A DNA stretch of 48,396 nucleotides, from assembly GCA_048885865.1 (NCBI GenBank), contig JBHLLF010000022.1, forward strand, positions 1 through 48,396, written 5' to 3'. The notes under the pieces were generated by a model that was given only the letters and a program-made list of their open reading frames with translations, had not been told where the DNA came from and searched no databases. Of the stretch, positions 10,760 through 42,939 are shown piece after piece. The DNA is from Candidatus Hermodarchaeota archaeon (GTDB taxonomy: Archaea; Asgardarchaeota; Thorarchaeia; Thorarchaeales; Thorarchaeaceae). Within the stretch, counting starts at the first letter, position 1. Every line of letters starts with the position of its first letter. A program made the translations under genes and the position numbers.

Positions 10760-10771
10760 GTGCCCATGCAC

Positions 10772-24645: not shown

Positions 24646-24660
24646 GATGGAGAATCAGAA

Positions 24661-25656: not shown

Positions 25657-26340
25657 GTGTTACAGATGAGCCCGCGCCTCTCAGCCTTTGACCTTCATAC
25701 ACACACCCTATTCTCGAAGGATGGGTTGAATAAGCCGGCAAATCTGTTCAAGCTGATGAGGATGAAAGGGCTAAGGGGCATGGCACTTACTGAGCATTGG
25801 CAGCCGTCCATCTTCAAACCTATAGCCAGAAATGACAGGTTTCTACTCAACGGTTGTGAATACAAATCATCTGACCACGGAGAGCTGATAGGTCTATTCG
25901 TAACCGAACCAATCAAGAATCGCACGTTCGAAGAGATAGCTGATGACATCCATGATCAAAACGCCCTGACGATTCTACCACATCCGAAGGATCCCTTTAG
26001 GAAACACACTGCAACCAGAAGGAAATTGCCTGAGGATCTGATTAGCAAGCATGTAGATCTTATTGAGGGAATAAACTCACGCTGTCTGCTCCCAATACAC
26101 AACACCAAGGCTCAGCGTTTGGCCAAACGACTGAGTAAGCCGATGACAGCTGGAAGTGATGGGCATTTCACGAGAGAGGTCGGGCACGGCAAGACTTGGT
26201 TGCAGGACATAGGAACTGCTGATGATATCTACGAGGAACTAAGGAAGGGAAGAACTCAGATCACTGGTCATGTATCTTTCTTCTACGTTCATATACCTGG
26301 TTTCATCTGGCAACGACTGAGGAGGTGGCCCTATGAGTGA
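25657..26340 (+). CDS. PHP-domain metal-dependent phosphoesterase
   Basis: DLHTHT..SKDG, LTEH, GCE, PHP, AGSDGH; alternative start ATG 25666. Confidence 0.88.
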   Translation: MLQMSPRLSAFDLHTHTLFSKDGLNKPANLFKLMRMKGLRGMALTEHWQPSIFKPIARNDRFLLNGCEYKSSDHGELIGLFVTEPIKNRTFEEIADDIHDQNALTILPHPKDPFRKHTATRRKLPEDLISKHVDLIEGINSRCLLPIHNTKAQRLAKRLSKPMTAGSDGHFTREVGHGKTWLQDIGTADDIYEELRKGRTQITGHVSFFYVHIPGFIWQRLRRWPYE

Positions 26341-27367
26341 TATCGTACCTGATGACAAAGAGTCCGAGGGTTCATTCGTTAGCCTTCGCAAAGTCTTGAT
26401 TTTTGCCTTCGCAGCGGTAGTTGTGTATCTCGCCATTATGTTCGTGTTCCAGTTCGAGCAGGTACTAGCGGCAATCACGGCTATAGATTGGTGGTGGGTT
26501 CTTCCTGTAATGATGGGATTGTCATTTCTGAATTATCTTCTGCGCTATATCAAGTGGCAGTATTATCTACGACGAATCGATGTCAACCTCTCTCACACGG
26601 ATAGTTTCAGCATCTTCCTCGCAGGTTTCACTTTGACAACCTCACCCGGCAAAATTGGCGAAGCAATAAAGGGATATTTCATCCATGACCTAGACGGAAC
26701 TCCAATTGCCAAAACAGTTCCAGTCGTTGTCTCTGAAAGGGTCACTGACCTACTAGCGATGGTATTACTTGCCATGATTGGATTTGTAATCGGGCTTTCA
26801 GGTGTCGATCAGCTGACAACTGTATTATTACTTGGAGGAGTCGTACTTGTAGGAGCTATATTTCTAGGGCAACCAAGGTTCTACAATATCTTCCTTAGAA
26901 AGATGACCTCATTTGGGCCGCTAAAGAGATTCAAGGACAGCGTATCACTTATTGAGGATACGATGGGTAAAACACTATCTCCACAGCCAATGGCCCTCAG
27001 CACAGCCGTCAGTATACCAGGCTGGTTCATGGAGTGTCTCGAACTTTGGCTTCTTCTTTCACTAATGACAGGAGCAGGCATCCCAAGTCTTGCACCAGAA
27101 TCCATTAGTCTGTTAATGATTGCGACTTTCATCCATTCGACTGCTTCAGTTATAGGAGCGCTCTCCTTCCTTCCAGGAGGGCTTGGGACATATGAAGTGT
27201 CAAGTGCGGCATTGATCATTGTCCTCTTGAGCACAACATATGCTGTAGCAGGAGCAGCGACTATCATTATTCGATTTGTTACTCTTTGGTTTAGTGTGAT
27301 TGTGGGATTCATTGCGCTGGGAGTCGTCACAAGACGACGCAAGATGCAGACAAAGAAAGAGGAGTAA
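26333..27367 (+). CDS. Lysylphosphatidylglycerol synthase TM / UPF0104 flippase-like protein
   Basis: LRYIKW, PGKIGE, ERVTD, PGGLGTYE, IRFVTLW. Confidence 0.88.
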   Translation: MSDIVPDDKESEGSFVSLRKVLIFAFAAVVVYLAIMFVFQFEQVLAAITAIDWWWVLPVMMGLSFLNYLLRYIKWQYYLRRIDVNLSHTDSFSIFLAGFTLTTSPGKIGEAIKGYFIHDLDGTPIAKTVPVVVSERVTDLLAMVLLAMIGFVIGLSGVDQLTTVLLLGGVVLVGAIFLGQPRFYNIFLRKMTSFGPLKRFKDSVSLIEDTMGKTLSPQPMALSTAVSIPGWFMECLELWLLLSLMTGAGIPSLAPESISLLMIATFIHSTASVIGALSFLPGGLGTYEVSSAALIIVLLSTTYAVAGAATIIIRFVTLWFSVIVGFIALGVVTRRRKMQTKKEE

Positions 27368-27390
27368 GAAAGGCAGTAGCCTTTCTCACT
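27363..27390. terminator. Hairpin between convergent genes
   Basis: AGAAAGGC-AGTA-GCCTTTCT perfect 8-bp stem, extended by AGT/ACT. Confidence 0.6.
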
Positions 27391-27397
27391 TGCCCAT

Positions 27398-30300
27398 CTA
27401 CAACTTGATTCCAAGACTATCAAGGAGTGCTTCTAGGTCAGCCTTGGAGAGGCTCTTTGCCTGTTCAATAATAATATCAATCTCATCGTCAGACATGCCC
27501 TTACGCTTCAATTTCAAGCGAAGCTCTTCAAGCTCCTCGGGCTTCTCCTCCAGGATCTCCTTGGCCTCAGAAGGAACAGGTTCAGCTTCAGCCAGAGCCT
27601 CCGCACGGCGTGCCTCCTCCTGCTCAATTACCTCACGAATGAATCCAGGTCGCTCACTAGCACGCATTCTGGCCAGGTCCTGTCTGAATGCCTCAAGCTC
27701 CATTTCTCCAAGTCCTGTGATTTCAGCCAGACGCTCCAAGAGGTCCTCAATCTCAGGAACAATTGCTTCAATGCTTGGACCCGGGACATCCTCTAGCTCC
27801 TTACTCAGTCCAGATGCCTTCAGTTCCTCATTGATGATCTCAAGGAGCAAATCCTCTCTGGCACGCACCTTTGGAGCGCCTGGAACTTTTCCTTTGGCCA
27901 GTGCAGCTATCATCTTATTCAGCTGTCGAATAATCCATGGGATGGCAAAGTGCTTGACGTATGCAACAATCCCAATTGCCACGAAGATAAAGAGGAAGCC
28001 TCCGCCCAATGCTAGGTTCTGGGCAAGAATCTGCTCATCTGAGAAGTCTGATTTCAGAGTGAAGGTTATTTGCTGGGAGAAGTACAAGTCCTTTGTGAAG
28101 GTGATAGTCACATTGATTGTACCGCCAGTGCGTACTACATATGGGAAGGTGTAAACACCATCAATTACGGGTGGCCTTCTGTCCTCTGGAAATGAGATTT
28201 CCGCGGGATCAAAACTAACCGTTGCAACGGCATCGCTGATACCTACGTCATGATCTAGGTCTCGAAGAAGTATTACTATGGAATCCTGAGCTCCTGGGAA
28301 TGTCAATATTGTTGTGTTTATTCCAAGTGTATCAATCATGGTGAGCACTGGACGAACGGTTAGGTCAAGGAACTGTGACGATATGCTGTAAATCGAGGTG
28401 GAGAATCCAATCTCAATTCGATAGCTTGTCATGATGAGATAGTCTGGCACACTCAACTCATAGCTCCCATTGTCCATCTGGAAGAGCTCCATTATCAGTC
28501 CACTTTCCCAATATGCCAATCCCTGAAGACCTTCAACTGTTTCGTTTGTTAGGTCATTGATCACATTGAATACGACAGAGCCAGTGTGATTGACAGGAAC
28601 GTCGTACGCCGTTGGGCCCTCAATATGTGCGGGAGTGGCAGTTATGAGAACTCTGACTGTGAGTGATGACAAGGAATAGTTCTGGAGACTGAAGCTTGCC
28701 ACTATGTCGTAGAGTCTAGGCGAAGTTGGAGTCAGAGTAATCTCAACAAGATAATATCCAGTACCTAGGTCAGTTACAGCCCCTGTCCCGCCTTCCCAAC
28801 TAACATCCACAAAGGCTCCCACAATTGGCTGGAGATTGTGTGTGTCATTGTAGTAGAAGGTGAATGTCACGACATCGTTATGGTATCCCTCACGCAGCAG
28901 TGTATTTACGGTCACTTCTGTAGGCACAGGTTGTATTGTTACAACTAGAGTCCTCGTGGCTGTTGCCATTCCAGTTTTGGAGCCTATGATTCTAAGGAAT
29001 ATTGTTTGTGCAGGCAAAGCGCTGGTATCAATTATCGCACTGTATGTGCCATTTGCATTCTCAGTAAGACTTCCTCTCAAACTACCAAGAACATATGTGA
29101 CATTAGCGCCAGTAACATATCCACCATAGTATGTATTATTGTACTCAACGAGAATCGAGAGCATTGCCCCTCGAACAACAAACAATGCTGCTGCACCGCT
29201 TGCTAGTGCAATATTCGTTGGAATTGGAACAATGTTGATGTCTACAATTGCATCAAGGAATGCATGATTCAAGGACGCCGCTGTAATAACCGCCTCATAC
29301 GGGCCCAAGGCAAATCCTGTAGCATCAATGTTTGCCAAGTAGAATCCAGGGGTGCCATTAGTTACAAGAGGATAGACAGTATTGTTCCACTCCATAGTAA
29401 TTGATGAGGCAACAACAGGAGAATTTGTGATAGTATCGTTAAGATATATGGTGAATACTTGAGTTGTGTTGACAATCACATCAAACACTGTTTGTTCGCT
29501 AAGAATCTGACCTGGTGCTTTTGATACTACGAGAGTAAGACTGGTCTGACGTGTCTGGTAGTATTGCCGTGATACAGATATTTGCAAATTATAAACGCCA
29601 AAGTTCTCGTTGGATGTGTCAAGCATTAGCGAATATGTACCATTTGCCAGATCGGTGAAGTAATAGATGGTGCTATTCCAAAGCAGAGTCACATTCGCTC
29701 CAGGGATCAGACTATAGTAGTAGCTCTCCCTAACATCAATGCGGATGTCATGAACTTCGCCCCAGAGTGCATAGACAGCTGTCTTATGAAGAACTAGTGC
29801 GAAGGTTGAGGCTCCGGGAGTAACCGATACAACGATGTTTGAATCTTGATAGAGTGATTTCTGGGCTGTGACCGTAAACGAGTAGTCCTGTGCTAGTAGC
29901 CCGGTCATGTTGAGTGTCAGGGTGTAGAGGCCACCGCCTTCCTCAACGAGCTGGTAGCTTGTTCCATATAGAGATGCCCAATCCGTTGTGATAACAGCAC
30001 CAGATAGAGGTACATCATGATCGAAGTCCATGAGGGTCAGTGTGACATTGATTGGAACACCTACTGCTGTCGAACCAGGTGGAGGTGCTTCTGCAACGAG
30101 GGATGTGATGATTGCTCGTATGCTTGCAGGTACGCCAGTAGCGAGCCTCGAGGAGTAGAATGGGACTCCTCCCTTGCTAGCTGAGATATCAAAATAGACA
30201 ATGCCTAAGCCGCCAAAGACAGTTGAATTGATGTAGATTCTATATGAGCCACTACCCAATTCCACGACTTGATATGCTGGAGCTGACCAATTTGTGCTCG

Positions 30301-33300
30301 CCAGTGTTATCACTGCATTCTCTATGCCATGACCAGACAGGAAGTCAATATAATCAAGCTCAATCGTAAAGTTGTCAGTGTAGGGCACTTCTTCTATCAA
30401 TGGAAATAGAATCTGTGTGGACCTTTCAGTTGTCGTGGCTATGGTGTTGGTGCTTCTAAGTGCATAGTATGGAGGAGCACCAGTTACATCGATCTCCAGT
30501 TGAATCGCCTCACCAACAACAAGGGCTGAAGGATTGAGAACGGTCGAATTGAAGCTAATCTCATAGTACGTGCCAAAGTCGTAAAAGGCGTACTCGCCAA
30601 TTGCGATAGGAGTTTCTGCCACTCCATGCGACAAGGTGATGTGCGACTTGGTAATAGGAATAATCATTCCAGTGATATAGTCTTCAAACTTGAACTGGAA
30701 TGTCACATTCTCGAGGAAAGGCGTATCACCCGGAGTCTGAATAATGAGAATCTGGGTTGTTCTCTCAATCACTCTAGAGGTAATATCATTATTCGCAGGA
30801 AGGTAGTACGGCGCTCCAGAATACGATACAGATACACTCAGGATATATGTTCCAAGATTCCCTAGAGCAGTGCTTTCTACTTCTATGAGATATTGCCCTA
30901 ATCCGAGGTATGTCACCCAGTAGTTTGTATTTAGCGCTAGTGTAAAGGTAGAGTTGCTGCAATCAACAATGACTGAGGCTCCACTGACACCTCTCCCTGT
31001 GCTGTCATCAATATAGGTGATTACAAAAGTGACATTCTCCAAATAGGGGACTGGGTCTGGACTCTCATATCCGAACTGCGTAGACCGCTTGAGCACTGAA
31101 AAGCCAAATGTATCAATTGCGCCTGCAAACGTTGGCTGAGTGGGATCAATACTAGCTACTATCGTATAGAGGCCATCTGTTCCGACGCCTGAAGTATTCA
31201 CTGTAACAAGATAGTGTCCGTTTCCTGCATAAACAACTGTATACCATCCAGCTAAAGATGCATTCAATGTAAGAGTTCCAGTCATTCCGACAGAAGATCC
31301 AGCCACCAAGTCAGTATAGGTGAATTCGATAGTTACATTATTGCCCCATTGGCCAGGAGCGAATGAAGAATGCGTCAACTGTGTGGCTCTTTGGATTACA
31401 GTGACAGTGTACGCCAATGTCACAGTAGTTGTGTAGTATGGTGATCCCACCCAGGTGACATTCAGGACAAGAACGTGACTCCCAATTCCGGCCAATGTTG
31501 AAGTATCAACTCGAAGAAGGAAAGACACATCTCCCGAATCATATGAATAGGAATAGCCCACAGTGCCATTGAGCAGAGATATCGACATTTGAGGAGAGTC
31601 ACCGATACGGGCAGTGGTTAGGAAATCAATGTAGCTGAACTCCAGGTCAGCAAGCTCACCATAGGGTGTGGAGGGCACTGGTATATAGTCGATGTAGGTG
31701 GGTCTCTGAAGCACGACTAAGGTAACAGTCATGGTCTGGTTTTCATAGAGAGGTGATACTCCCTTCGGCCACATGAACCCGATGCGGAATATGAATGAGC
31801 CAGTAGCGTCCAGTTGGGTGCTGTCCAACCTGAATTCATATATCCCTGTTCCAAGACCTGTTTCCGCCACAACAAAGTCACTCTGAGTAACGGGATGTCC
31901 TGCTGTTAGTGAATCAATTGTCAACAGGACATTGAGAGTGTTATTCGATATGTTCGTTGTATTCGTCACGTCATAGTAAACAACAGTGAAGCTGAATTCA
32001 TTCAGGAAATAGACCGCAGTAGGAGCTTGGTCCAAAAATATGTCTGTCGCAGTCCCGGTGAGACGCACGCGAGTGTTAAAGGATTGACCTGTGTATTTGG
32101 TTCCGGTCCATGAAACTGATATTGTCAGATTCTTCCATCCCACGCTACCCCATTGAGTGCTGGGAATGCTGATGTTGTAATGTCCATCACCCAATGAAGA
32201 GGCTACTAATGCAAACTGGACATTTCCAATCTCCGGCGATGTGATAGTAATCTGCACGTTTCCAGTGATGTTCGTGATACCAACCTGCAAGTCAGTGTCC
32301 TGGAAGAATACCAAGACCATAACCTGTTCATTGAATTGAGTCTGCTGGATTGGTTCGTCCAGAGTGAATAGTGTGCTGTGAGACCTGATGATTACAGATA
32401 TGATGAATGTCTGATTTCTCATCAGGTATCCGGAAAGGCTGACTGAAACTGGATAGTTGCCTGGAGCATCGCTATCCAAGGTATAGATTGTGATGTTGTA
32501 GAGACCAGGTGAAACTTCATCCACCTTATAGGTCCCAGCCCAAGTTGTGGTAATTGAATCATTCAGCCCCGTCAAAGGAACATCGTGATCCACATTCATC
32601 CACTCCACCGTGAAAGAGCTGGCTTCGCCAACAGGAATCTCAAGCACATTCTGGACATATGTGGCTCTAGTATTCAGCTCTCTTACGGTCACATAAATGA
32701 GATATCGCTGTGGAAGCACGAAATTGGCTTTCCCAGTGACTTCCACGACATATTCGCCCATGTCCACGAATGTTGTATTCAGCCAGACGAGGTAACTCCC
32801 GGGGGAGCCTGCGACGGGATTGACAGTGTAATAGCTTGTCCAATTGCAGTCTACACTTCCATAGTCAATTGGATTCCCTGTCGAATCCTCGAATCTAACT
32901 TGGAAGCTAGAGTTGTAATTCTTGGGCACTGAGATACCGGGTGATTCAGGGTCTTCAAGAACGAAGGTTGCATCATAGTTCAGGTTGATTGTCAGATAAT
33001 TGACTATGGAGTCAAAGTGCGGATGAGTCCATGCGATTTCTATGACCCAAATGCCATTCGATGGCAGGTCACCAGAATCAAGCGTTATAATGTACTCACC
33101 GTTTCCAGCATCTCCAAAAGTCTGTGGACCAGTTGTCCAGTTGCATGACATCTGCCCTCCTGGCACAGTCACTCCAAGTATATCGCTGTCATTGACACGT
33201 ATTCTAACGAGGAACAAATCGGGATAAGTCACATTCGTTATCCATGTAATCTGTGCATCAACAGGGTTAAGGAGCTCTGAGTTTGAAGCATGAACAACAT

Positions 33301-35062
33301 TGAATGCACGTCGGAAGAAGCCAGTCGCATTCCATGCTGTTGCGCCTATTGAGTTATCACAGAAGGCCTCAAGGATATAGCTTCCAGCGGTGGCGTTCAG
33401 CCCGAAGGTCAACATAGGAGTTTCGGCATATCCAGTAGTGTTCACTGTCGCCAGAGTCGTATACCAAATTGCCCCTGATGGAGAATAGACCGTGAGATTC
33501 ACGTCGACTCCAACAAAGCTTGGATCCAACTGGGCACCTAGCTTTGCAGAATCTCCAGCACGTAGGTCAAGGAATCTCGAGTTCGAGTGTGTGGATGGGT
33601 CGAACATTAAGACATCAGATATCATATTGGGTCCGGTGCTCTTGATCAACCAGTAGCCCCATCTATCTGGGTAGTTGAATGCAGAGATATTCGCAAACCA
33701 AGTCGGACCATGACCTTCATTCCAGTCTGTAATATTCTCTGATGTCAAAAGAGGCGACCCCACATAGTAGACGTCGCGTCCCTCTGGAAGTGTCATGTTG
33801 AAGAAGTACCTGTTATCATATCCTGTTGGAATATCAGCGTTGAACCAAGTGAGATAATCCACATCTGTGGCATTCTCAACTTCAAATACTTCTCCAAACG
33901 CAGAGGGATCTTGTGTATAGACAGTAGTTGTGGCTCCGCGAGCGTAGAGGTTGGTTTCAACATTGAAATCGACCTCAATTTTCCTGTCAGGACTAGGAGT
34001 TGCAGGGTTTGGAGTCCAGGTGAGGTTAATCATTATTGGGCCAGAGGTCCAAGTCGGAACAGGATTCTGCGTCAGATTGCCCAGCCCTGGAACAGTGCCG
34101 AGTCCAACTGCATAATCGTTCACATCCAGCCCGTTCACCTGCAAGTTTACATCCGATGGATCAGTCAAAGTTTCAAGGTACAATTCGAAGTTGTCTACTC
34201 TTGCCTCTGGGTCAAGATCGGGAATGTAATTGACGCCTTGTTGGCTGTAGAGACCCACTTCAATGTCCACTCCATCAGATAAATCAAAATCAGACAGGTC
34301 AGTGAGCTCGATGAGACCGCTGTCATACCATGTTTGTGCTTGGTCAACATCAGCAAAGGACTTCTGCCAGACTCTCTGTTGATAGTCATTGGTTTCAATG
34401 GATACATATACAGCCACGAATCCATCTGCGCCCCAAGCAGAATCTATCCAATAATCTAGACGGAAACCAGCCCACACAACGTCCCCACGATTGACAACCA
34501 TGTTCTGACGGATGTATCCTCTCTCGCCAGTACTTGGGTCTCCTGGAATCGTATATTCAATGCAGTCGTCCCCAGCACCATGACCGTTGGTTAACCAAGT
34601 TGGAAGAGGGGCGCCACCAGCTGAGCCACGAGTCCATGAAGTGTCACCATTCTCCATATCGGGGTCCTGTGTCCATGTACGGTTCTCAGTCAAGTCATAT
34701 ACGCTGACGAACAGCTCATGGCCTTCCCAATCATCACTCATAGGAACGTAAACGGAGGTATCAGTTGTGCCGGAACCCGGAGAATAGGTCATCTGGTTGG
34801 AGAGATGAGTGTCCGTACGATTGCCATATGCGACGGCAGGAATACCCGATGACAGCCCTTGCCATGTTACCATTCCTTGCTCAGACAGCACCATTGTTCT
34901 TTCATCAATGCCCAGTGGCCTCTGCATAGAATCGTCAAAGGAATTTGTACTTTGCAAGTTATCATCAAACATGTTGAGGTCGAAAGCTATTGGGCCTGAT
35001 GCTCCAAAGGCAAGTATGAATGCCAATGCTAGAACCAGGGTCAATCTTGTGGACGATTTCAT
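27398..35062 (-). CDS. Giant type I membrane protein (2554 aa) with Ig-like repeats and conserved helical cytoplasmic tail (paralog A)
   Basis: Signal peptide; N-terminal jelly-roll-like domain; many ~100-120-aa beta repeats with G.G.Y...l.T..L..G.Y motifs; TM LALGGGFLFIFVAIGIVAYV; ~185-aa tail; ATGA overlap with paralog B. Confidence 0.92.
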   Translation of the reverse strand: MKSSTRLTLVLALAFILAFGASGPIAFDLNMFDDNLQSTNSFDDSMQRPLGIDERTMVLSEQGMVTWQGLSSGIPAVAYGNRTDTHLSNQMTYSPGSGTTDTSVYVPMSDDWEGHELFVSVYDLTENRTWTQDPDMENGDTSWTRGSAGGAPLPTWLTNGHGAGDDCIEYTIPGDPSTGERGYIRQNMVVNRGDVVWAGFRLDYWIDSAWGADGFVAVYVSIETNDYQQRVWQKSFADVDQAQTWYDSGLIELTDLSDFDLSDGVDIEVGLYSQQGVNYIPDLDPEARVDNFELYLETLTDPSDVNLQVNGLDVNDYAVGLGTVPGLGNLTQNPVPTWTSGPIMINLTWTPNPATPSPDRKIEVDFNVETNLYARGATTTVYTQDPSAFGEVFEVENATDVDYLTWFNADIPTGYDNRYFFNMTLPEGRDVYYVGSPLLTSENITDWNEGHGPTWFANISAFNYPDRWGYWLIKSTGPNMISDVLMFDPSTHSNSRFLDLRAGDSAKLGAQLDPSFVGVDVNLTVYSPSGAIWYTTLATVNTTGYAETPMLTFGLNATAGSYILEAFCDNSIGATAWNATGFFRRAFNVVHASNSELLNPVDAQITWITNVTYPDLFLVRIRVNDSDILGVTVPGGQMSCNWTTGPQTFGDAGNGEYIITLDSGDLPSNGIWVIEIAWTHPHFDSIVNYLTINLNYDATFVLEDPESPGISVPKNYNSSFQVRFEDSTGNPIDYGSVDCNWTSYYTVNPVAGSPGSYLVWLNTTFVDMGEYVVEVTGKANFVLPQRYLIYVTVRELNTRATYVQNVLEIPVGEASSFTVEWMNVDHDVPLTGLNDSITTTWAGTYKVDEVSPGLYNITIYTLDSDAPGNYPVSVSLSGYLMRNQTFIISVIIRSHSTLFTLDEPIQQTQFNEQVMVLVFFQDTDLQVGITNITGNVQITITSPEIGNVQFALVASSLGDGHYNISIPSTQWGSVGWKNLTISVSWTGTKYTGQSFNTRVRLTGTATDIFLDQAPTAVYFLNEFSFTVVYYDVTNTTNISNNTLNVLLTIDSLTAGHPVTQSDFVVAETGLGTGIYEFRLDSTQLDATGSFIFRIGFMWPKGVSPLYENQTMTVTLVVLQRPTYIDYIPVPSTPYGELADLEFSYIDFLTTARIGDSPQMSISLLNGTVGYSYSYDSGDVSFLLRVDTSTLAGIGSHVLVLNVTWVGSPYYTTTVTLAYTVTVIQRATQLTHSSFAPGQWGNNVTIEFTYTDLVAGSSVGMTGTLTLNASLAGWYTVVYAGNGHYLVTVNTSGVGTDGLYTIVASIDPTQPTFAGAIDTFGFSVLKRSTQFGYESPDPVPYLENVTFVITYIDDSTGRGVSGASVIVDCSNSTFTLALNTNYWVTYLGLGQYLIEVESTALGNLGTYILSVSVSYSGAPYYLPANNDITSRVIERTTQILIIQTPGDTPFLENVTFQFKFEDYITGMIIPITKSHITLSHGVAETPIAIGEYAFYDFGTYYEISFNSTVLNPSALVVGEAIQLEIDVTGAPPYYALRSTNTIATTTERSTQILFPLIEEVPYTDNFTIELDYIDFLSGHGIENAVITLASTNWSAPAYQVVELGSGSYRIYINSTVFGGLGIVYFDISASKGGVPFYSSRLATGVPASIRAIITSLVAEAPPPGSTAVGVPINVTLTLMDFDHDVPLSGAVITTDWASLYGTSYQLVEEGGGLYTLTLNMTGLLAQDYSFTVTAQKSLYQDSNIVVSVTPGASTFALVLHKTAVYALWGEVHDIRIDVRESYYYSLIPGANVTLLWNSTIYYFTDLANGTYSLMLDTSNENFGVYNLQISVSRQYYQTRQTSLTLVVSKAPGQILSEQTVFDVIVNTTQVFTIYLNDTITNSPVVASSITMEWNNTVYPLVTNGTPGFYLANIDATGFALGPYEAVITAASLNHAFLDAIVDINIVPIPTNIALASGAAALFVVRGAMLSILVEYNNTYYGGYVTGANVTYVLGSLRGSLTENANGTYSAIIDTSALPAQTIFLRIIGSKTGMATATRTLVVTIQPVPTEVTVNTLLREGYHNDVVTFTFYYNDTHNLQPIVGAFVDVSWEGGTGAVTDLGTGYYLVEITLTPTSPRLYDIVASFSLQNYSLSSLTVRVLITATPAHIEGPTAYDVPVNHTGSVVFNVINDLTNETVEGLQGLAYWESGLIMELFQMDNGSYELSVPDYLIMTSYRIEIGFSTSIYSISSQFLDLTVRPVLTMIDTLGINTTILTFPGAQDSIVILLRDLDHDVGISDAVATVSFDPAEISFPEDRRPPVIDGVYTFPYVVRTGGTINVTITFTKDLYFSQQITFTLKSDFSDEQILAQNLALGGGFLFIFVAIGIVAYVKHFAIPWIIRQLNKMIAALAKGKVPGAPKVRAREDLLLEIINEELKASGLSKELEDVPGPSIEAIVPEIEDLLERLAEITGLGEMELEAFRQDLARMRASERPGFIREVIEQEEARRAEALAEAEPVPSEAKEILEEKPEELEELRLKLKRKGMSDDEIDIIIEQAKSLSKADLEALLDSLGIKL

Positions 35063-38000
35063 TCCTTCAGACCTCCTATTTGATCAAGTAGTGCATCTAT
35101 TTCCGCCTTAGTCAGCGACCTCGCCTGCTCTACCATGAGGTCTGCCTCAGATGGTTCGATTCCCATCTTGATGAGCTCCTGCTTCAAATGCTCAAGCTCA
35201 TCCTCCGTGAGCATGCGTTCAGCCTCTGAAACCGCCTCAGGTGCCTCGGCTGACACCTCAACCTCCGCTAGTTCCCGAGCTCTCCTTGATCTCTCCTGTC
35301 GAATGACCTCTCCAATGAATCCTGCGCGCTCACTGGGTCGCATCTTTTCGAGGTCACTCCTCAGAACGGCGATGTCGTCATGGGTGAGGCCAACGACGAC
35401 CTGCAGTTCTTCTAGTAGCTGTTCAACATCAAGGGCCTCAACCTCAACTGTGGACACCGCAACATCCTGCATCGTCTTCCTGATGCCAACTGGCTCCAAT
35501 TCGTCATTCATCACGCGAAGGAGGTATGTTCTTCTATCACTGACTTTCGCAGCGGGCGGGATTTGTCCTTTGCCAAGCATTGAAACCATACGTCTAATGA
35601 TTCTGAGAAGCTTCGGAACAGACCAGACTCTCACATATGCAGCCGCCAGACCTGCAACCAAAATCAACAAGAAGCCTGCATAGCTGAAGGTCTGAAACAT
35701 AGCCTGGGTTTCAGGAGAGAACACTGAGTAGATATCCAAAGTTAAGACACCCCTCCGGTAGTCCTCTTTGTCAAGTGTGATGACTAACTCATAGTAACGA
35801 ACAGCACTTGGAATGAAAGCAAATACATACGTACCATTTGGATGAACCATGGCAAGACTGGCTTCATTTTCTAGGGGAGTAGTTGTATTGATTGCGTCGA
35901 TGATTGGAACACCATGGTCGACATCCATGTAGGTGATGCGGACATAGAATGGTTCTCCGACATAGGTGCTTGGAAGCAGAGGTTCAAATATCATTGAGGT
36001 CGCAATCTCGCGAATCGTGAGATCAAAATTCAGCTGCTGTGTTGAGTAGTTAGCTTTGCTGAATAGAATCCTAAGTGCATAGGGTTCGCTTCTCACTTCC
36101 AGCCTGCTAAAGCCAGCCTCTGTGGGACCGAATCTATATGATCCATTACCCAATGCAAAGAGTGGAGCAGAACCAAACTCCCAGAATGCTGTAACAGATG
36201 CATCCACAAGAAGCTCATTGTTTAGAGTATCATTAAACTGGAACATCTGAGTGAAGTCGTCACCAACTGGAACAGTGGCTGAATCAGACCCAATAACCTC
36301 AGTGGAGATTGGCATTGCTACAAACTTAACAACGCTATAGGCATAGTCATAGAGATTCTTCTGGAAGATCACTGAGATATCATGCGCGATGAGACCAGCT
36401 GTAACCCAGGTAGTATTGATGGTTAAAGAGTAGACTCCACCACCGACCTCCACAAGTGTGCCACCCCTGCCTTCCAGCACATATGTCGCCAGTGCACCTG
36501 CTATTCCAATATTGTTGAAGGTGTCATTGAAGCTCAATAGGAACGTTAAGTTGGTCCCGTAGTATCCATTCTGTAGCACATCGCTTATTGGAAGGACTGC
36601 AGTTGGCACTTTGAGAATTGTTATGGTGAATTGGGTAGAGGCAGGAGTAAAGCCATCCTTTAGGCTTGATACAGTAAGAATCCAGTCGCCTATTTGTAGG
36701 GGTGCACCTGTTGGTACTTGAGCGGTGTAGTAGCCATTGCCCAACTCAGTTAGGTCACCTACAATCACATCTATTCCATATGTCAAAGCGGCACCAAGAA
36801 CTGGTCCAGTCAGATCAACATTCTCCAAGTAGACTGTAACATTCACGAAATCTCCAGAAACTGCTGACAACACAGTTACGCCTTGATACGCAGATAGAGC
36901 AGTGGTAATCTCAGTTATCTCAATAGTTATGGGTGTACTTACACTCTTGTAGATTGAGGAGCTTGCTTGGATGAGTATCTGATGGTTACCTACAGCTGCG
37001 TTTGCTACAATCATTTGACCGATGTACTTCTGCTGCGCAGGCACCCAAGTGAGAACACCAGTACCTCCAATCCAGCTATATTTGACCAATCCAATCTCTA
37101 TAGCCGTGCTGTTTGAAAATATTAAGTAATCAGCTTCAATTGTCACTGTTTCTCCGTTAACTGCAACTTGGGGGTCTAGTGAAGCCAGAATCTTAGCTGG
37201 GACTTTATCAATGCGAATCTGAAAGTCTCTTTGTCTGGTTTCATAATTCAAAAGAGTCGATTCGACCCTGATTGTATATTCGCCACTAACAAGACCCATA
37301 GTTGAAACAGTAGCATTGTAAATACCACCGCCGATTTCTGCCATAGTGTATGTTCGCCCATAGAGGGTGAGATTTACAGTGGCTGCTAGGACTGGGGCAC
37401 CATTTCGGGCATCAGTGACATTAGCACTGAACTCAAGAACATCACCCCAAACAGGATCCGTCGGTGAGAATACTAGATCGATCTCAACAGGGATAGCTGC
37501 CAAGAGGATGTCCGCCGTGACTGACCTGCTAAGATGGAGGAACTTTGAAGCGTTAATGCTGAAAGTGTAGATTTGCGCATTGAGTCCTGATGTGTCAATC
37601 TCCATCCTGTAGATGCCGTTTCCAAGCGGAGTGATTGTGTGGGTCGTTCCCCAGAGAGCTGTCCAATCGCTGACAACAGTGGCTCCATCAATGCCTTGAC
37701 CTTCGTTGATATCGGTGAAGGTGATATTTCCAACTACTAGGTCCCCAAGATAATATGTGACTCCTTGAGGTAGGACAAAATTCAGGCTTGTTGAAACCGG
37801 ATTGACTAGCACACTAAACTCCAATCCAATGACGTCCTTGTAGTATGGGGACCCAGACCATGTGATATCGGCACTAAAGAAGTAGCGACCTATCCCGGCT
37901 TCGAGATCGTTTGTATCGACGATTATTTTGTATCGCCCATCGCCCATGTCAACAATCCAACTTGAGAAGACAGAATCATTGACGCACGTGAAAGTCACCA

Positions 38001-41000
38001 TTGCACCAGGGATGGGATCACCAGAGAGGTAGTCACTGAACTCGATGGTGGCACTCAAGTTGAAGTAATAGAAGGCACCAGGAGTTGAAAGCACCCGACC
38101 CTGGGTGAATCGAGCATTTATGTTGACCGCGGTGGATGTTGTTGCGTTGGCATAATATGGAGTGAAGTCGCCCCAGAAGAACTTGACAAAGATCGGATGA
38201 CCTGAAACTAGAACAGATGTCAGAACAGTCGAGTTGATTGATATTATGTAGACACCATTTGCACCACTTATGCTGAATTCTGAATCAAGAATCAGCGTGC
38301 CTCCTCCATGTGTGAGAATGAGTACACTCTTGTTGAGCGATATCGGAGAGCCATCGAGAGAATCGGCTATTGTCAATTCGAAACTCACATTCTCAAGGAA
38401 GGGTGTATTGAGCGGTGACTTTGAAACACTCAGGCTGACAGGTCTTCTTGAAACCTCAATGTCCACCAACCGGACGCGTTCCAAGTAGAAGGGACTGCCA
38501 GTCCAGTTCGCTGTGATTTCTATTGTGTATCGCCCGAAATTACCAAGAGCAACAGTTGATATGCGGACTCTGTAGTAGCCAGAGCCAAGCTCATCGACCC
38601 AGTAGTTGCTGTCCAGCACAAGAGGCTGGGAAGATGTTGCACAAAATGCGTAGACCTGAGCTCCCTCAATCCCTGCATCAGTGCTGTCATCGATGTATTG
38701 GACTGTTATGTTGGCTTGAGTCAGGAATGGTGCAAGATCTGGAAGCTCACTTGTCATCTGGGTACGTCTAGCTTGAATGGTCAAGTAGAAGAAGTCAACA
38801 GCATCTGCACAGAACCTGACTCCTCCATAGGCAATTGAAACATTTACAATGAAAGTTCCGGTAGACGGGAATCCGTCAGTCCTTAACTCAAGTGTATAGG
38901 TTCCATCTCCGTTGTCGGCGTAATCATAGAATCCAGCCATTCCCATAACTGTGAGTGTGCCGCCGTCCATTCCCAGCGATGTGAGATCATCCTGATCAGT
39001 ATATGTAAATACCAAGGTCAGATTGTTGCCAAATTGAACCGGCGAGTAAACGCCATGCGTTAGCGACGTGTACCGTTCACGCACATTGATGAAGATGTTG
39101 ACCGTACGATTCTGATAGAATGGACTACCCGACCATACAAGATTCACTTGAAATGAATGGGTTCCTGTTGACAAGAAGAGCGAAGTATCAACCTGTATGA
39201 AGAATATGCCAGTGGTATCCCCATCATAGTAGATTGTGAAGGCATAGCCGGGTGTCGTGATTTGAAGACTTGGACTATCTAGAATATTGCTGTCCGATAG
39301 TACATCTTTGAAGGTAAGAGTAAGATTGACCTTCTCATCATAAGGAGTGACCGGCAATGGATTCCAGTTAACAACTGTCTGTCTGTATGTGGAAAAGACA
39401 CTGAGGAGTAGAGTTCTGTTCTCATAAAGCGGAAGGGCTCCTTTTGTCCAGTTCACATGTATTCGCAGCTGACATTCGATAAGTCCAGACAAATAGGATG
39501 AGTTGAACTCAATCCGGTATTCACCAGGACTACCAACGAAATCGATTTCTGTTATTACCATGAGGCTCTGTGTTAATGTTTGGCCAGGTGTGATTACTTC
39601 GATGTAGATGAGAACGTTATTGGCGAATGGACCAGTGCCATTCACAATTCCGTTGGTGGCACCGACATCCCAGTAGATTATTGTGAATGTGATATTTTCG
39701 CCATAAGGCGTGGATGTTGGACTGGTCCCTAGAAACAGGTCCGTCGGGGCTCCAGAGATTCTTACTGAGAAGGTCAAGACTTTGTTATCATACTTTGCGC
39801 GTTGGCCGGTCCAATTTGCATATACCGATAGCTGTTTCCAGCCAATATCACCCCATTGGCTCGCAGGCACAGCAATAATGTATTGTCCAGCGATTGAACC
39901 ATTGTAGACCGTATAGGTCAGGGGCTCGACGACTGGAGAGGTCACATAGATTAACACATCTGATCCAATTATGCCTGAGAGTGTTGATGCATCATAATAC
40001 GTCACATTGATGAGAATCATCCCGGTATAAGGTGTAGGCTCTACGGGGTTATCAAGAGATAAGAGGGTAAGATGGCTAGTGACAATGACTGTAATTGAGA
40101 AAGTATGATTCTGATAGCCAAACCTACTCACATCAAAAACAACATCGTAGCTTTGTAGAAAGTCAGTTTCAGTGGAGAAGAATACGACTTCATATATCCC
40201 TGGAGATGTCATTGTTACAGTGTAATTCTGATCTCCGAGAACATGACTTTCTGACCAATTGCATACTATTGAGCTCTCAGCCCCAGTAATAGGCTGATCA
40301 TGATCCGTGTCCCATACTGTCAATGAAACTGACTCTTGGAATCCGATTGGCAGGTATACAACACTCCGAGAGGTCGACACAGATGTGAACAACTGTCTGA
40401 CTTCAATGAATAGCGTGATGCTTGCTGTGACGTAGAAGTCCTTCTGCGCGGTGACGACCACTGCATATGTTCCTAGATTCGTATTCGGAGTTGTTATCGT
40501 CAATGTGTAGTTCCCGGGTTCGCCAGGTGCTGGGACAACTGTGTATGATGAATCAGTCCAATTGCATAGTATGGTGGCTCCATCGATACCTGCATCACGA
40601 GAGTCAGCAAAGATGAGCTCAAAGGATGCATCCCAACTTCGAGGAACTGTCAGCCCAGGCGCATCAGGAGAACTTAGACTTGTTTCTTCTATGACATTGA
40701 TGACAAATGTTTCTAGGATTGAGTCATAGTAGGCATTACTCCATGTTAAAATGATCACATATCTACCGGGGGTTCCTAAATCCGCCGTGTTCAGAACAAC
40801 GCTATATTCACCTGTCCCCATATCATTCAGTGGATTGACTCCACTAGTCCAATTGTAGGTGGCTGTACCGCCAGGAAGAAGGTCACCATTATCAGAATCA
40901 TTGACTCTCACCTGAAGCAGCATATCCTGACCGTATGTGAGGTTCCTCATCCAAGTGATTTTAGACTCCCGAGGATATGTTACATACATGTCTGTGGCAT

Positions 41001-42783
41001 GTTGAATCGCAAACACTCTACCATAGAGACCCACATCGTGAATCGAGCCGCCCGAGATAGAGTCGTTAGCAAATGCTTCAACGGTCCATTGTCCAACCTC
41101 AGCTGTCAACGCATCAAGGTTCACGTCTGTAGTCTCAGCAATTCCACCGACAACTGTGGCCTCAAGGCGGTCCCATAGTGCACCAGAGGTATCATAGATT
41201 GAGAAGCTTACTACTGCACCATTGAAGGCAGAGCTGAGTTGGGCTCTGAAGCGGACATTGTCGTTCGCACGATAGGTATAGGTTGAATCCCAAGCAGAGC
41301 CAGTCCACATCTGCAGGTCTTGAATCATATTGTCGGAGTGCCCTTGGAAACGCCAGAAACCATTTTGGTATGTGTCAGTAATGCCTTCGTACACAGACAC
41401 ATTCACACTGGTCGAGTCTTGAGACCAATAGGCAAAATCAGAATCAGGATATCGAGGCTCAGACACCATGTCAATCGTACGAGTAGTTTCCTTTGTGAGG
41501 TTAAGGAAGTAGAGGTTTGAATATCCATTGGGTACAGCGACGAAATAGTAGCTGTTCCATTGGACCTGAGAGCTATTTGATACTGAGAAATACTCTCCAT
41601 AGCTTTGGACTTCAGCCTGGTATAATGAGGATCTATTCAATTTCCTTGCGTATACGGTCATATCAACTGAGAATGTCACACGAATAACATCAATTGGGTC
41701 TGGATTGACTGGTGTGGGCGTCCAGGAGAAAGTCGAGTTGACTGAGCTTCCAGTCCACGGAATCTGAGGAACTTCAGTGGCGGTTCCAACACCCCATAGC
41801 CAGCCGCCGATGCCGTCGCTAGTGTTTGCCACATCAAGTCCATTCATCTTTAGATTCACCTGAGATGGCAGTACACGCGATTTCACAAACACCTTCACAT
41901 TGTCCATACGGACCTCAGGATTCAGCTGGGGTTGGCAGCCAAACGATCGGGTTGTCCTCACTCCTATCTGTAGTGTGAAATCTGAGGAAGTGATCAGGGA
42001 CGCATTTCCCTCCACGAGTCCAGTGGAATACCAAGTTGTCTGGGCTAGAACATCATTGAATTGAATGTCCCAGAGATGGTTTGCCACGATATCAGCTGAA
42101 CCAACTTGTACATAAAGCTCCCAAAAGCCCACAGGTGCGCCACCCCATGCGTCATCTACCCAATAGTCAAGCGATACACCAACCCATGTAACCTCACCGC
42201 TACTTGTAGATATGCTCTGCTCGGCATAGCTTCGATCGCCAAGGTCATGACGATACCAACCTCCATCCAGATCCCCTGTCTGGGTGAAGCTAATTACTCC
42301 TCCTGATATTACAGGGATGAATAGGTTGGTATGCGGGCCTATTTCATCAGTCCCAAGTGTCCAGTCAGAGGTTGTGGAAAAGTCAGGATTTGTAATCCAA
42401 GTTCGATTCTCTTGGAGGTCACTGATAGAGGTAGAAATTGCTGTCCCTTCCCAGAGAGGACCTAATGGAACTGAAGTTGTATCAGATGTAGTCGTATTGG
42501 AGGTTTCATAGGTGAGTTCAATATCGGTGAAACTATCAGTTCGCACACCGTATTCCGAAACATTCAGAGGAGAGCCAACACCGTCTCGAGCAAGTGGTAC
42601 ATCGGAAAGGCTGTATGAATGGAGAACTTCGTCCGATTGAACCTCAATAGTCTGTCCTCCTCCAATATCCACAAGACGAGAGCTTTCAGTATCTTGTCCT
42701 ATGATGTTATGACCACCAAAGGTCGACAGAAGAAGAATCGGCAGTAGCAAGATTGTAAGTGAAAGAGTCCGACGACTGTGCAT
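35059..42783 (-). CDS. Giant type I membrane protein (~2574 aa) with Ig-like repeats and conserved cytoplasmic tail (paralog B)
   Basis: Collinear with paralog A; ATG 42783 has GGAGG upstream (track start 42819); TM FSYAGFLLILVAGLAAAYV. Confidence 0.92.
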   Translation of the reverse strand: MHSRRTLSLTILLLPILLLSTFGGHNIIGQDTESSRLVDIGGGQTIEVQSDEVLHSYSLSDVPLARDGVGSPLNVSEYGVRTDSFTDIELTYETSNTTTSDTTSVPLGPLWEGTAISTSISDLQENRTWITNPDFSTTSDWTLGTDEIGPHTNLFIPVISGGVISFTQTGDLDGGWYRHDLGDRSYAEQSISTSSGEVTWVGVSLDYWVDDAWGGAPVGFWELYVQVGSADIVANHLWDIQFNDVLAQTTWYSTGLVEGNASLITSSDFTLQIGVRTTRSFGCQPQLNPEVRMDNVKVFVKSRVLPSQVNLKMNGLDVANTSDGIGGWLWGVGTATEVPQIPWTGSSVNSTFSWTPTPVNPDPIDVIRVTFSVDMTVYARKLNRSSLYQAEVQSYGEYFSVSNSSQVQWNSYYFVAVPNGYSNLYFLNLTKETTRTIDMVSEPRYPDSDFAYWSQDSTSVNVSVYEGITDTYQNGFWRFQGHSDNMIQDLQMWTGSAWDSTYTYRANDNVRFRAQLSSAFNGAVVSFSIYDTSGALWDRLEATVVGGIAETTDVNLDALTAEVGQWTVEAFANDSISGGSIHDVGLYGRVFAIQHATDMYVTYPRESKITWMRNLTYGQDMLLQVRVNDSDNGDLLPGGTATYNWTSGVNPLNDMGTGEYSVVLNTADLGTPGRYVIILTWSNAYYDSILETFVINVIEETSLSSPDAPGLTVPRSWDASFELIFADSRDAGIDGATILCNWTDSSYTVVPAPGEPGNYTLTITTPNTNLGTYAVVVTAQKDFYVTASITLFIEVRQLFTSVSTSRSVVYLPIGFQESVSLTVWDTDHDQPITGAESSIVCNWSESHVLGDQNYTVTMTSPGIYEVVFFSTETDFLQSYDVVFDVSRFGYQNHTFSITVIVTSHLTLLSLDNPVEPTPYTGMILINVTYYDASTLSGIIGSDVLIYVTSPVVEPLTYTVYNGSIAGQYIIAVPASQWGDIGWKQLSVYANWTGQRAKYDNKVLTFSVRISGAPTDLFLGTSPTSTPYGENITFTIIYWDVGATNGIVNGTGPFANNVLIYIEVITPGQTLTQSLMVITEIDFVGSPGEYRIEFNSSYLSGLIECQLRIHVNWTKGALPLYENRTLLLSVFSTYRQTVVNWNPLPVTPYDEKVNLTLTFKDVLSDSNILDSPSLQITTPGYAFTIYYDGDTTGIFFIQVDTSLFLSTGTHSFQVNLVWSGSPFYQNRTVNIFINVRERYTSLTHGVYSPVQFGNNLTLVFTYTDQDDLTSLGMDGGTLTVMGMAGFYDYADNGDGTYTLELRTDGFPSTGTFIVNVSIAYGGVRFCADAVDFFYLTIQARRTQMTSELPDLAPFLTQANITVQYIDDSTDAGIEGAQVYAFCATSSQPLVLDSNYWVDELGSGYYRVRISTVALGNFGRYTIEITANWTGSPFYLERVRLVDIEVSRRPVSLSVSKSPLNTPFLENVSFELTIADSLDGSPISLNKSVLILTHGGGTLILDSEFSISGANGVYIISINSTVLTSVLVSGHPIFVKFFWGDFTPYYANATTSTAVNINARFTQGRVLSTPGAFYYFNLSATIEFSDYLSGDPIPGAMVTFTCVNDSVFSSWIVDMGDGRYKIIVDTNDLEAGIGRYFFSADITWSGSPYYKDVIGLEFSVLVNPVSTSLNFVLPQGVTYYLGDLVVGNITFTDINEGQGIDGATVVSDWTALWGTTHTITPLGNGIYRMEIDTSGLNAQIYTFSINASKFLHLSRSVTADILLAAIPVEIDLVFSPTDPVWGDVLEFSANVTDARNGAPVLAATVNLTLYGRTYTMAEIGGGIYNATVSTMGLVSGEYTIRVESTLLNYETRQRDFQIRIDKVPAKILASLDPQVAVNGETVTIEADYLIFSNSTAIEIGLVKYSWIGGTGVLTWVPAQQKYIGQMIVANAAVGNHQILIQASSSIYKSVSTPITIEITEITTALSAYQGVTVLSAVSGDFVNVTVYLENVDLTGPVLGAALTYGIDVIVGDLTELGNGYYTAQVPTGAPLQIGDWILTVSSLKDGFTPASTQFTITILKVPTAVLPISDVLQNGYYGTNLTFLLSFNDTFNNIGIAGALATYVLEGRGGTLVEVGGGVYSLTINTTWVTAGLIAHDISVIFQKNLYDYAYSVVKFVAMPISTEVIGSDSATVPVGDDFTQMFQFNDTLNNELLVDASVTAFWEFGSAPLFALGNGSYRFGPTEAGFSRLEVRSEPYALRILFSKANYSTQQLNFDLTIREIATSMIFEPLLPSTYVGEPFYVRITYMDVDHGVPIIDAINTTTPLENEASLAMVHPNGTYVFAFIPSAVRYYELVITLDKEDYRRGVLTLDIYSVFSPETQAMFQTFSYAGFLLILVAGLAAAYVRVWSVPKLLRIIRRMVSMLGKGQIPPAAKVSDRRTYLLRVMNDELEPVGIRKTMQDVAVSTVEVEALDVEQLLEELQVVVGLTHDDIAVLRSDLEKMRPSERAGFIGEVIRQERSRRARELAEVEVSAEAPEAVSEAERMLTEDELEHLKQELIKMGIEPSEADLMVEQARSLTKAEIDALLDQIGGLKE

Positions 42784-42901
42784 TCTAACGTCTCCTCCAA
42801 TAGATGCAGTGTGACCCATACTGCTCCTGAATTGAACTCAGCTGAGGATGTAAGAGAGTCGTCTCTCCCACATATTAAACAAATGGGTGAATATTGATTC
42901 C

Positions 42902-42927
42902 AAAAAATCAAAAAGCTTTCGATTTTT
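42902..42927 (-). terminator. Hairpin/oligo-T terminator after the metalloprotease gene
   Basis: Minus strand AAAAATCGAAAGCTTTTTGATTTTTT, 12 nt after the stop at 42940. Confidence 0.55.
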
Positions 42928-42939
42928 CGAACGGCGCTG

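Follow-up and report, generated by a model that had tools for sequence, protein, structure and literature searches.

A conserved tandem pair of giant predicted surface proteins with matched Ig-like stalks and a new cytoplasmic domain in Thorarchaeota

Two giant genes, here called A and B, lie in tandem on the minus strand of the stretch of DNA analyzed in this work (the window), which comprises 48,396 nucleotides of contig JBHLLF010000022.1 from Candidatus Hermodarchaeota archaeon, assembly GCA_048885865.1. The window is contig C22 of the source metagenome-assembled genome (MAG), which has a size of 3.58 Mb and is 87% complete; a locus search with a single protein matched only public "Candidatus Thorarchaeota" MAGs, which are its close relatives. 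The products of A and B align collinearly across 2546 amino acids (aa) with 31% identity and 4% gaps (BLASTP), and each of them includes an N-terminal hydrophobic signal sequence, a head, a stalk of immunoglobulin (Ig)-like repeats, a single transmembrane helix, and a cytoplasmic tail of 182-188 aa (Table 1). A previous interpretation based on the letters of the DNA (the sequence-only reading) had described the genes as tandem, collinear and clearly diverged paralogs that overlap by ATGA and encode these same parts; the alignment, the overlap at positions 35062-35059, hydropathy, a repeat profile and AlphaFold2 models all agree with that description.

The true start of gene A is probably the codon M13, at position 42783, because GGAGGA is found 8 nt upstream of this ATG and the signal peptide follows it directly. 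At the other end of the gene, the stop codon of A and the start codon of B share the ATGA, and the putative ribosome-binding motif for B, GGAGG, is located inside the last codons of A. A conserved IGG or LGG near the C-terminus of the A-type tails is encoded by GGAGG, which is also Shine-Dalgarno-like for B, in the window as well as in loci L041-L054, and the C-terminal ending of the B-type tails differs from it; judged by its sequence, this GGAGG is under a dual constraint, as coding sequence and as signal. Upstream of A, a hairpin followed by a T-run closes the preceding protease gene and lies 5' of a TATA-like box, and a terminator-like hairpin with a 12-bp stem and a T-rich tail is present just past the stop codon of B. 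Given these elements, A-B looks like a bicistronic unit, with a promoter and a terminator predicted from the sequence. Codon adaptation was considered as a measure of abundance and rejected, because the ribosomal genes themselves lie below the genome median; A falls in the 77th percentile and B in the 92nd.

Table 1. Features of the A-B locus, of its surroundings in the window, and of two related gene pairs in the source genome
Feature	Residues (aa)	Position	Strand	Basis or remark
Gene A, upstream partner		35059..42819	minus	2586 aa counted from first ATG
A head, all-beta	~37-626	40942..42711	minus	31% identical to B head
A stalk, 17 Ig-like repeats	627-2369	35713..40941	minus	repeat profile
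A transmembrane helix	~2376-2398	35626..35694	minus	hydropathy peak at aa 2378
A cytoplasmic tail, ~188 aa		35062..35625	minus	
GGAGG, putative ribosome-binding motif for B		35072..35076	minus	inside last A codons (IGG)
ATGA overlap, A stop / B start codon		35059..35062	minus	sequence read
Gene B, downstream partner		27398..35062	minus	2554 aa open frame
B head: jelly roll, further beta-sandwich domains, macroglobulin (MG)-like domain	~25-610	33233..34990	minus	
B jelly-roll domain	~125-298	34169-34690	minus	AlphaFold2 model and VIA
B MG-like domain	478-590			AlphaFold2 model and VIA
B stalk, 17 Ig-like repeats	611-2342	28037..33232	minus	repeat profile; last repeat modelled
B transmembrane helix	~2349-2372	27947..28018	minus	hydropathy peak at aa ~2351 and long helix in model
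B cytoplasmic tail, 182 aa: juxtamembrane motif, two three-helix groups, acidic linker		27401..27946	minus	
TATA-like box upstream of A		42872..42879	minus	sequence read; function inferred
Hairpin and T-run ending the protease gene		about 42901-42929		sequence read
Terminator-like hairpin past B stop		27363..27390	minus	consensus match only
Metzincin-like membrane-anchored protein, 734 aa, HExxHxxGxxH		42940..45144	minus	directly upstream of A
Operon converging on B 3' end: DUF362, UbiA-type prenyltransferase, PHP phosphoesterase, flippase-like (LPG_synthase_TM)		23566-27367	plus	
Pair of tail-bearing giants		25090-56714 (contig C8)	minus	6554 and 3987 aa, 4-bp overlap
Pair of tail-bearing giants		59005-87440 (contig C8)	minus	5492 and 3986 aa, 4-bp overlap

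The stalks were delimited with a repeat profile that was seeded with one repeat and built iteratively. This profile identified exactly 17 contiguous repeats of ~100 aa in A and in B, instead of the 18 to 20 counted in the sequence-only reading; beyond these 17 family repeats, about 3-4 more beta-sandwich domains are present within the head. The lengths of the repeats in A and B are nearly equal, repeat by repeat, and the stalk ends ~10 residues before the transmembrane helix. When the repeats of both proteins were compared, the mean score for the repeats in matching positions, A(i) versus B(i), was 134 and that for non-matching repeats was 46, and the A(i)/B(i) diagonal gave the top score in 13 of the 17 rows and in 15 of the 17 columns. 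The repeats are position-specific, therefore the 17-repeat stalk is older than the A/B duplication and does not represent a recently expanding array.

The folds were predicted as single chains with AlphaFold2 for residues 1-810 of B, with 23 orthologs in the alignment, and for the segment formed by the last repeat, the transmembrane helix and the tail. In the latter model (predicted local distance difference test, pLDDT, of 88; ~88 in the tail and above 90 in the last repeat) the last repeat is a seven-strand beta sandwich that matches, in VIA, domains of SbsC, the phage GP4 fibre, and the tail of phage SU10 (Z 8.1-9.1, root-mean-square deviation (rmsd) of 2.1-2.5 Å over 76-86 residues), and also invasin and intimin domains (Z 7.2-7.9). 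As modelled, the stalk repeats are Ig-like at the fold level. The model of B 1-810 is all-beta, with a mean pLDDT of 82, and it bears out the jelly-roll-like head that had been anticipated, given that this domain shows Z values of 10.5-11.7 to carbohydrate-binding modules (CBM) and MAM domains. Its best matches are an alginate-binding CBM (8zqf, Z 11.7) and the MAM domains 2c9a (Z 11.4) and 8yt7 (Z 11.2), and CBM16, CBM61 and CBM4 follow with Z ~10.4; the predicted jelly roll is thus of the CBM/MAM type by fold, at 8-15% identity and with Z values that are common among beta sandwiches. On this fold likeness the tip of the head could be lectin-like, and it may bind sugars. The MG-like domain of B superimposes on an MG domain of alpha-2-macroglobulin with Z 10.5 and rmsd of 2.1 Å over 92 residues. 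With the whole head model, the matches retrieved by Foldseek were generic beta-sandwich arrays (macroglobulins, the S-layer proteins of Haloferax and Nitrosopumilus, and titin), with TM (template modelling) scores of 0.1-0.2. Among 23 A and B orthologs, 53 columns of the head are invariant.

N-x-S/T sequons number 54 in the ectodomain of A and 59 in that of B, and 23-25 in shuffled sequences, which represents 2.3 times the expectation (z about 7.4) and a density of ~1 sequon per 40 residues; about half of these sites are kept in at least 80% of the orthologs. The tails of A and B have zero N-x-S/T sequons. Enrichment in the ectodomain together with sequon-free tails supports the outside/inside topology and heavy N-glycosylation. 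Only 5-7 Cys are present in A and B. A motif scan of both proteins revealed neither a thioester (C[GLA]EQ) nor LPxTG or PGF-CTERM-type signals, and the NCBIfam models, including PGF-CTERM and other sorting signals, gave no match. No match to the FG-GAP, VWA or integrin Pfam families was obtained in A or B, and the Pfam hits for the whole proteins were sub-threshold (CarboxypepD_reg, 23.5 bits for a cut-off of 32.3; MG2, 15.2 for 32.8). For single repeats, all Pfam hits, which were of Ig type and included Big_3 and Invasin_D3, stayed under the gathering threshold, with a best E value of 2.5e-5; sequence searches of the PDB with A, B, the tail profile and the repeat profile returned nothing significant, the best hit being filamin with an E value of 0.0076. 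In public records these proteins are called "hypothetical" or "conserved exported protein of unknown function", and no description of this protein family was found in the literature.

The distribution of the pair was followed by searching the segment of B that includes the transmembrane helix and the tail across 400 genomes of the phylum. The tail is present in 81 of the 85 genomes of the family to which the window genome belongs (f1), and in the single genome of the sister family (f2); a few other Asgard families gave weaker matches, e.g. f14 in 17 of its 19 genomes, and the tail is missing from most families (0/135 genomes in f22, 0/31 in f8). In at least 35 genomes from ~15 genera, an A tail is encoded 7.64-7.82 kb upstream of a B tail on the same strand, and in these paired loci the B-type tails are 51-93% identical to the tail of the window B and the A-type tails 36-46%. 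One genome is ordered A-B-A-B, and the remaining matches lie on short contigs; on those contigs that are long enough to judge, neither A nor B was seen alone. In the fetched loci A was always followed by B (14/14), and at the junction of 15 loci, window included, an overlap of 4 nt (ATGA or GTGA) was found in 13, an overlap of 1 nt in one, and a spacer of 4 nt in the f2 genome. Order, orientation and coupling are conserved across f1 and in the one f2 genome, as expected if the orthologs occur as A+B pairs, and what these genomes hold are pairs with 17 repeats always, and not mostly singletons of variable length. The 17 repeats and the same length pattern were observed in all 28 orthologs; a single count of 16 is due to a double-length gap that corresponds to a missed repeat. 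The equal length that had been thought to be preserved is, in consequence, a property of the stalk and does not extend to the total length, since the A orthologs vary from 2590 to 2916 aa and six of the fetched ones are ~300 aa longer, with all the extra length in the head.

In a maximum-likelihood tree of the last ~1000 residues of the ectodomain plus the transmembrane helix and the tail, the f1 A sequences form one clade and the f1 B sequences another, each with 100% support and with parallel topologies. The f2 B sequence branches beside the B clade (98% support) and the position of the f2 A sequence, at the base, is unresolved. From the separate clades and the placement of the f2 B sequence it follows that the A/B split predates the family.

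The tail is the best-conserved region, with a mean identity across genera of 57% to the window protein; the values are 50-60% for repeats 4-11, 41% for the head, 32-45% for the membrane-proximal repeats and 34-38% for the transmembrane helix. In the model the tail consists of a juxtamembrane helix followed by two three-helix groups joined by a disordered acidic linker. A duplication of the two three-helix units was not significant when pairwise alignments were compared with shuffled sequences (z 1.1 in B and 2.1 in A), and their predicted resemblance is structural at best. The tail family comprises 112 representative clusters among 1.84 billion proteins, and in all of them the tail is placed at the C-terminus of giant proteins or their fragments. 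No family was assigned to it by Pfam, NCBIfam or the PDB sequence searches; all Foldseek and VIA matches of the model that contains the tail fell on the Ig repeat (residues 1-97) and none on the tail, and the ESM Atlas returned for the tail unnamed clusters only, with scores of 0.85 or lower. A 201-aa open frame on contig C69 was considered as a soluble partner of the tail and rejected, as it is the end of a giant gene cut by the contig edge. A 191-aa protein, P0114, has a Met start and no transmembrane helix; all that it shares with the tail is the first helical unit, placed at its C-terminus, and from its sequence it may be related to the tail module as a soluble protein.

Defined by this tail, at least 9 giants are encoded in the source genome. 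Four of them form the two pairs on contig C8 (Table 1); all four proteins have 23 repeats, and between the two heads of a pair the difference is 1,500 to 2,600 residues, therefore it is the matched stalk length and not an equal total length that is conserved. Being duplicates of each other, the two C8 pairs add only one more independent example of matched stalks. According to the tree, in which the 23-repeat proteins form a clade, the upstream and downstream C8 genes go back to duplications other than the A/B split, and the downstream genes carry four copies of a terminal helical unit of ~45 aa instead of one. A candidate fourth pair may be split between contigs C47, where the gene is open at its 3' end, and C2, where it starts at base 4; the contig ends do not overlap, and the repeat counts are 22 (C47) and 21 (C2).

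On the evidence of the sequences, we regard as secure that A and B are predicted co-expressed, glycosylated type I surface proteins, kept together in a fixed order since before the family diversified, and that they possess matched stalks of fixed length, each one with a new conserved cytoplasmic domain. They almost certainly work together, and the best explanation of the pattern is that both act in one structure. We propose that A-B would be transcribed as a two-gene unit, and that the ATGA overlap and the ribosome-binding site in the last A codons would couple the translation of B to that of A. Side by side, in a heterodimer or in a hetero-oligomer of higher order, the two proteins would make up long pillars or spikes whose tips would bind glycans of the own cell coat, of partner cells or of particles, and the paired tails would dock a cytoplasmic partner. 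The side-by-side association is proposed because the same domain count in the stalk, and the same lengths domain by domain, have long been kept in both proteins; we would give about an even chance to such a hetero-oligomeric pillar on the Thorarchaeota surface. A physical 1:1 heterodimer and contact with partner cells, both already raised in the sequence-only reading, and a link to the cytoskeleton are steps that we infer from here.

Several observations weigh against a paired pillar. Only 18 positions of about 2500 are strictly conserved within A and within B and yet differ between them, hence a strong sign of complementary specialisation is missing. High-quality relatives also encode tail-bearing giants of 3094-5084 aa as singletons, alongside more tandem pairs. 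A third type of tail, with 45-48% identity to that of B, is found on singletons of 3094-4618 aa (G336:C1, G389:C24, G329:C1, G392:C42) and was not found in the source genome, at 87% completeness. In f14, arrays of three or four same-strand tail genes of unequal size encode proteins of 745-2319 aa (G102:C15, G100:C2); these tail homologs are distant (26-32% identical), so the tail superfamily extends beyond Thorarchaeota and tends to tandem arrays. Pairing, in view of the singletons and of these arrays, is not a property of the whole superfamily. Finally, the placement of the domains relative to each other is not confident in the models (predicted TM score, pTM, of ~0.5), and the extended shape of the rod is presumed; if extended, 17 or more Ig-like domains would span roughly 60-80 nm, and the folded Pyrobaculum S-layer protein described below reaches only 37 nm.

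The main rival reading, and a serious one, is that A and B are two components of an ordered, S-layer-like envelope. Its lattice would be built from the N-terminal and middle domains, with the membrane-proximal repeats as the pillar and the transmembrane helix as the anchor. It is suggested above all by PySLP of Pyrobaculum arsenaticum, a protein of 292 kDa with 19 Ig-like domains and a C-terminal transmembrane helix, in which the lattice region is more conserved than the pillar (bioRxiv 10.64898/2026.08.21.746120); A and B have nearly the same size and build, and their repeats 4-11 are likewise more conserved than the membrane-proximal ones. By architecture, PySLP and its Thermoproteales homologs are the closest known analogue of A/B: PySLP has ~2,700 aa, a signal peptide, non-canonical N-terminal beta domains followed by a long canonical Ig-like array and a single C-terminal transmembrane anchor, it is glycosylated, and its architecture is fixed within the lineage. 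In contrast, PySLP is the product of a single gene, forms a homo-hexameric lattice, is Cys-rich and has a short basic cytoplasmic tail, whereas A and B are coupled, diverged paralogs with few Cys, a CBM/MAM-like head and a conserved helical tail of 185 aa. The envelope reading also accommodates the near-universal occurrence of the family with a fixed architecture, unlike that of variable adhesins, the sequon density, which equals the ~1 per 40 residues of thermoacidophile S-layer proteins (PMC11284389), and the presence of Haloferax and Nitrosopumilus S-layer proteins among the top Foldseek matches, although these matches, with their low TM scores, are generic for Ig-domain arrays. Sulfolobus SlaA/SlaB provides a precedent for an S-layer made by two genes: it consists of two adjacent, co-expressed envelope glycoproteins with Ig-like domains that act together, and the height of the layer is set by a membrane-anchored stalk. 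SlaA and SlaB are nonetheless non-paralogous, only SlaB is membrane-anchored, by means of a coiled-coil stalk, and no cytoplasmic domain is present. A and B do have the secreted, sequon-enriched and Ig-rich ectodomain with a C-terminal membrane anchor that is typical of S-layer proteins, but these have little beyond the anchor, and the known colossal ones a short basic tail, where A and B carry a structured tail that is their best-conserved region. In cultured Lokiarchaeia, which are Asgards other than Thorarchaeota, cryo-tomography revealed complex unidentified surface proteins that protrude from the single membrane and no ordered S-layer (PMC9834061), and no S-layer was found by proteomics (PMC9834061, PMC11284389). 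In addition, at least 3 further tail-bearing giants with very different heads are more in line with a set of different spikes than with one lattice. On balance, an S-layer-like envelope seems to us possible, if on the unlikely side.

It is also conceivable, and we consider it unlikely, that A and B are independent, co-transcribed adhesins or receptors that make no contact, with a tandem arrangement and equal stalks that were inherited from the duplication and are kept so that both reach the same height above the membrane. The small number of type-specific conserved residues would fit such independence, and so would the singleton giants, the f14 arrays and the recurrence of tandem duplication in the 23-repeat clade. 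Over such evolutionary distances paralogs that are redundant tend to be lost or rearranged, and against this expectation order, strand and junction have been kept in at least 35 genomes of ~15 genera, A or B alone was never seen on long enough contigs, and the topologies of the A and B clades are parallel. The more ambitious idea of an obligate, integrin-like receptor, with lectin-like heads on legs of ~70 nm that would recognize partner-cell glycans and tails that would signal to the cytoskeleton or the small-GTPase machinery, is quite unlikely in our opinion; if true, prokaryotes of the lineage closest to eukaryotes would have an outside-in adhesion link. The likeness to integrin alpha/beta is functional, i.e. 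two type I single-pass subunits, a ligand-binding head, beta-sandwich legs and tails that dock adaptors. There is no homology: A and B lack the FG-GAP propeller and the beta-I domain, the tails are unrelated, and the integrin subunits are not paralogs of each other and have far shorter legs. Least of all do we favor, as very improbable, that A and B are substrates or partners of the metzincin-like protease encoded upstream, either as shed ectodomains or as a macroglobulin-like trap. The gene of this protein, which has a signal peptide and a C-terminal anchor, sits 120 nt upstream of A on the same strand, and in 6 of 13 relatives a homolog with 49-91% identity immediately precedes A; the MG-like domain of the head and the alpha-2-macroglobulin family among the top Foldseek matches point in the same direction. 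Yet 7 of the 13 relatives do not have the gene at that position, the hairpin with its T-run and the TATA-like box separate it from A, and alpha-2-macroglobulin and C3 are poorly matched by A and B, which have no thioester motif, one MG-like domain only, and global TM scores of only 0.13-0.17 that are generic for beta-sandwich arrays. From its distribution, the metzincin-like neighbour may be an accessory of the A-B system, not an obligatory part of it.

Long strings of Ig-like domains with a sugar-binding or ligand-binding module near the tip are also found in bacterial giants such as SiiE, the RTX adhesins of the LapA/MpIBP type, invasin/intimin, and Bap/Ebh, and the A/B repeats match invasin, intimin and Big_3 domains weakly and below threshold. 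Unlike A and B, these adhesins are encoded by single genes, are secreted and held in the outer membrane or the cell wall, and have near-identical repeats in variable number and no transmembrane helix with a cytoplasmic domain. Receptor protein tyrosine phosphatase mu resembles A/B in having a MAM jelly roll atop an Ig/FN3 stalk, a transmembrane helix and a cytoplasmic domain; the B jelly roll superimposes on its MAM domain with Z 11.4 and rmsd of 3.3 Å over 144 residues at 8% identity, a likeness at the fold level only, as CBMs score equally and the A/B tail has no phosphatase domain.

The cell-surface molecules of Asgard archaea matter because these surfaces figure in models in which contacts between cells led to eukaryotes. 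For the Thorarchaeota surface this family is a concrete and near-universal candidate, predicted to form matched pillars that are glycosylated and have a lectin-like tip. It is unusual for archaeal envelope proteins to have a cytoplasmic domain that is both large and conserved, and this domain could connect the surface with the inside of the cell; the tail is, besides, a clean lineage-restricted marker that may be used as a bait for an intracellular partner.

Other genes of the window deserve a brief description. The metzincin-like protein belongs to no Pfam family and shows a weak, sub-threshold match to the GVDTG C-terminal sorting domain. At the far end of the window, on the minus strand, a giant gene at 1-4215 that runs off the window encodes more than 1405 aa with FG-GAP (integrin-alpha-like) repeats, and it is separated by a 1-nt spacer from a second giant gene (4217-10771, minus strand, 2184 aa) with bacterial TSP3 repeats; neither of them carries the tail domain. 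The operon that converges on the 3' end of B is possibly linked to surface glycosylation, and its flippase-like gene converges on B in the window, in two relatives of the same genus, and in one other genus.

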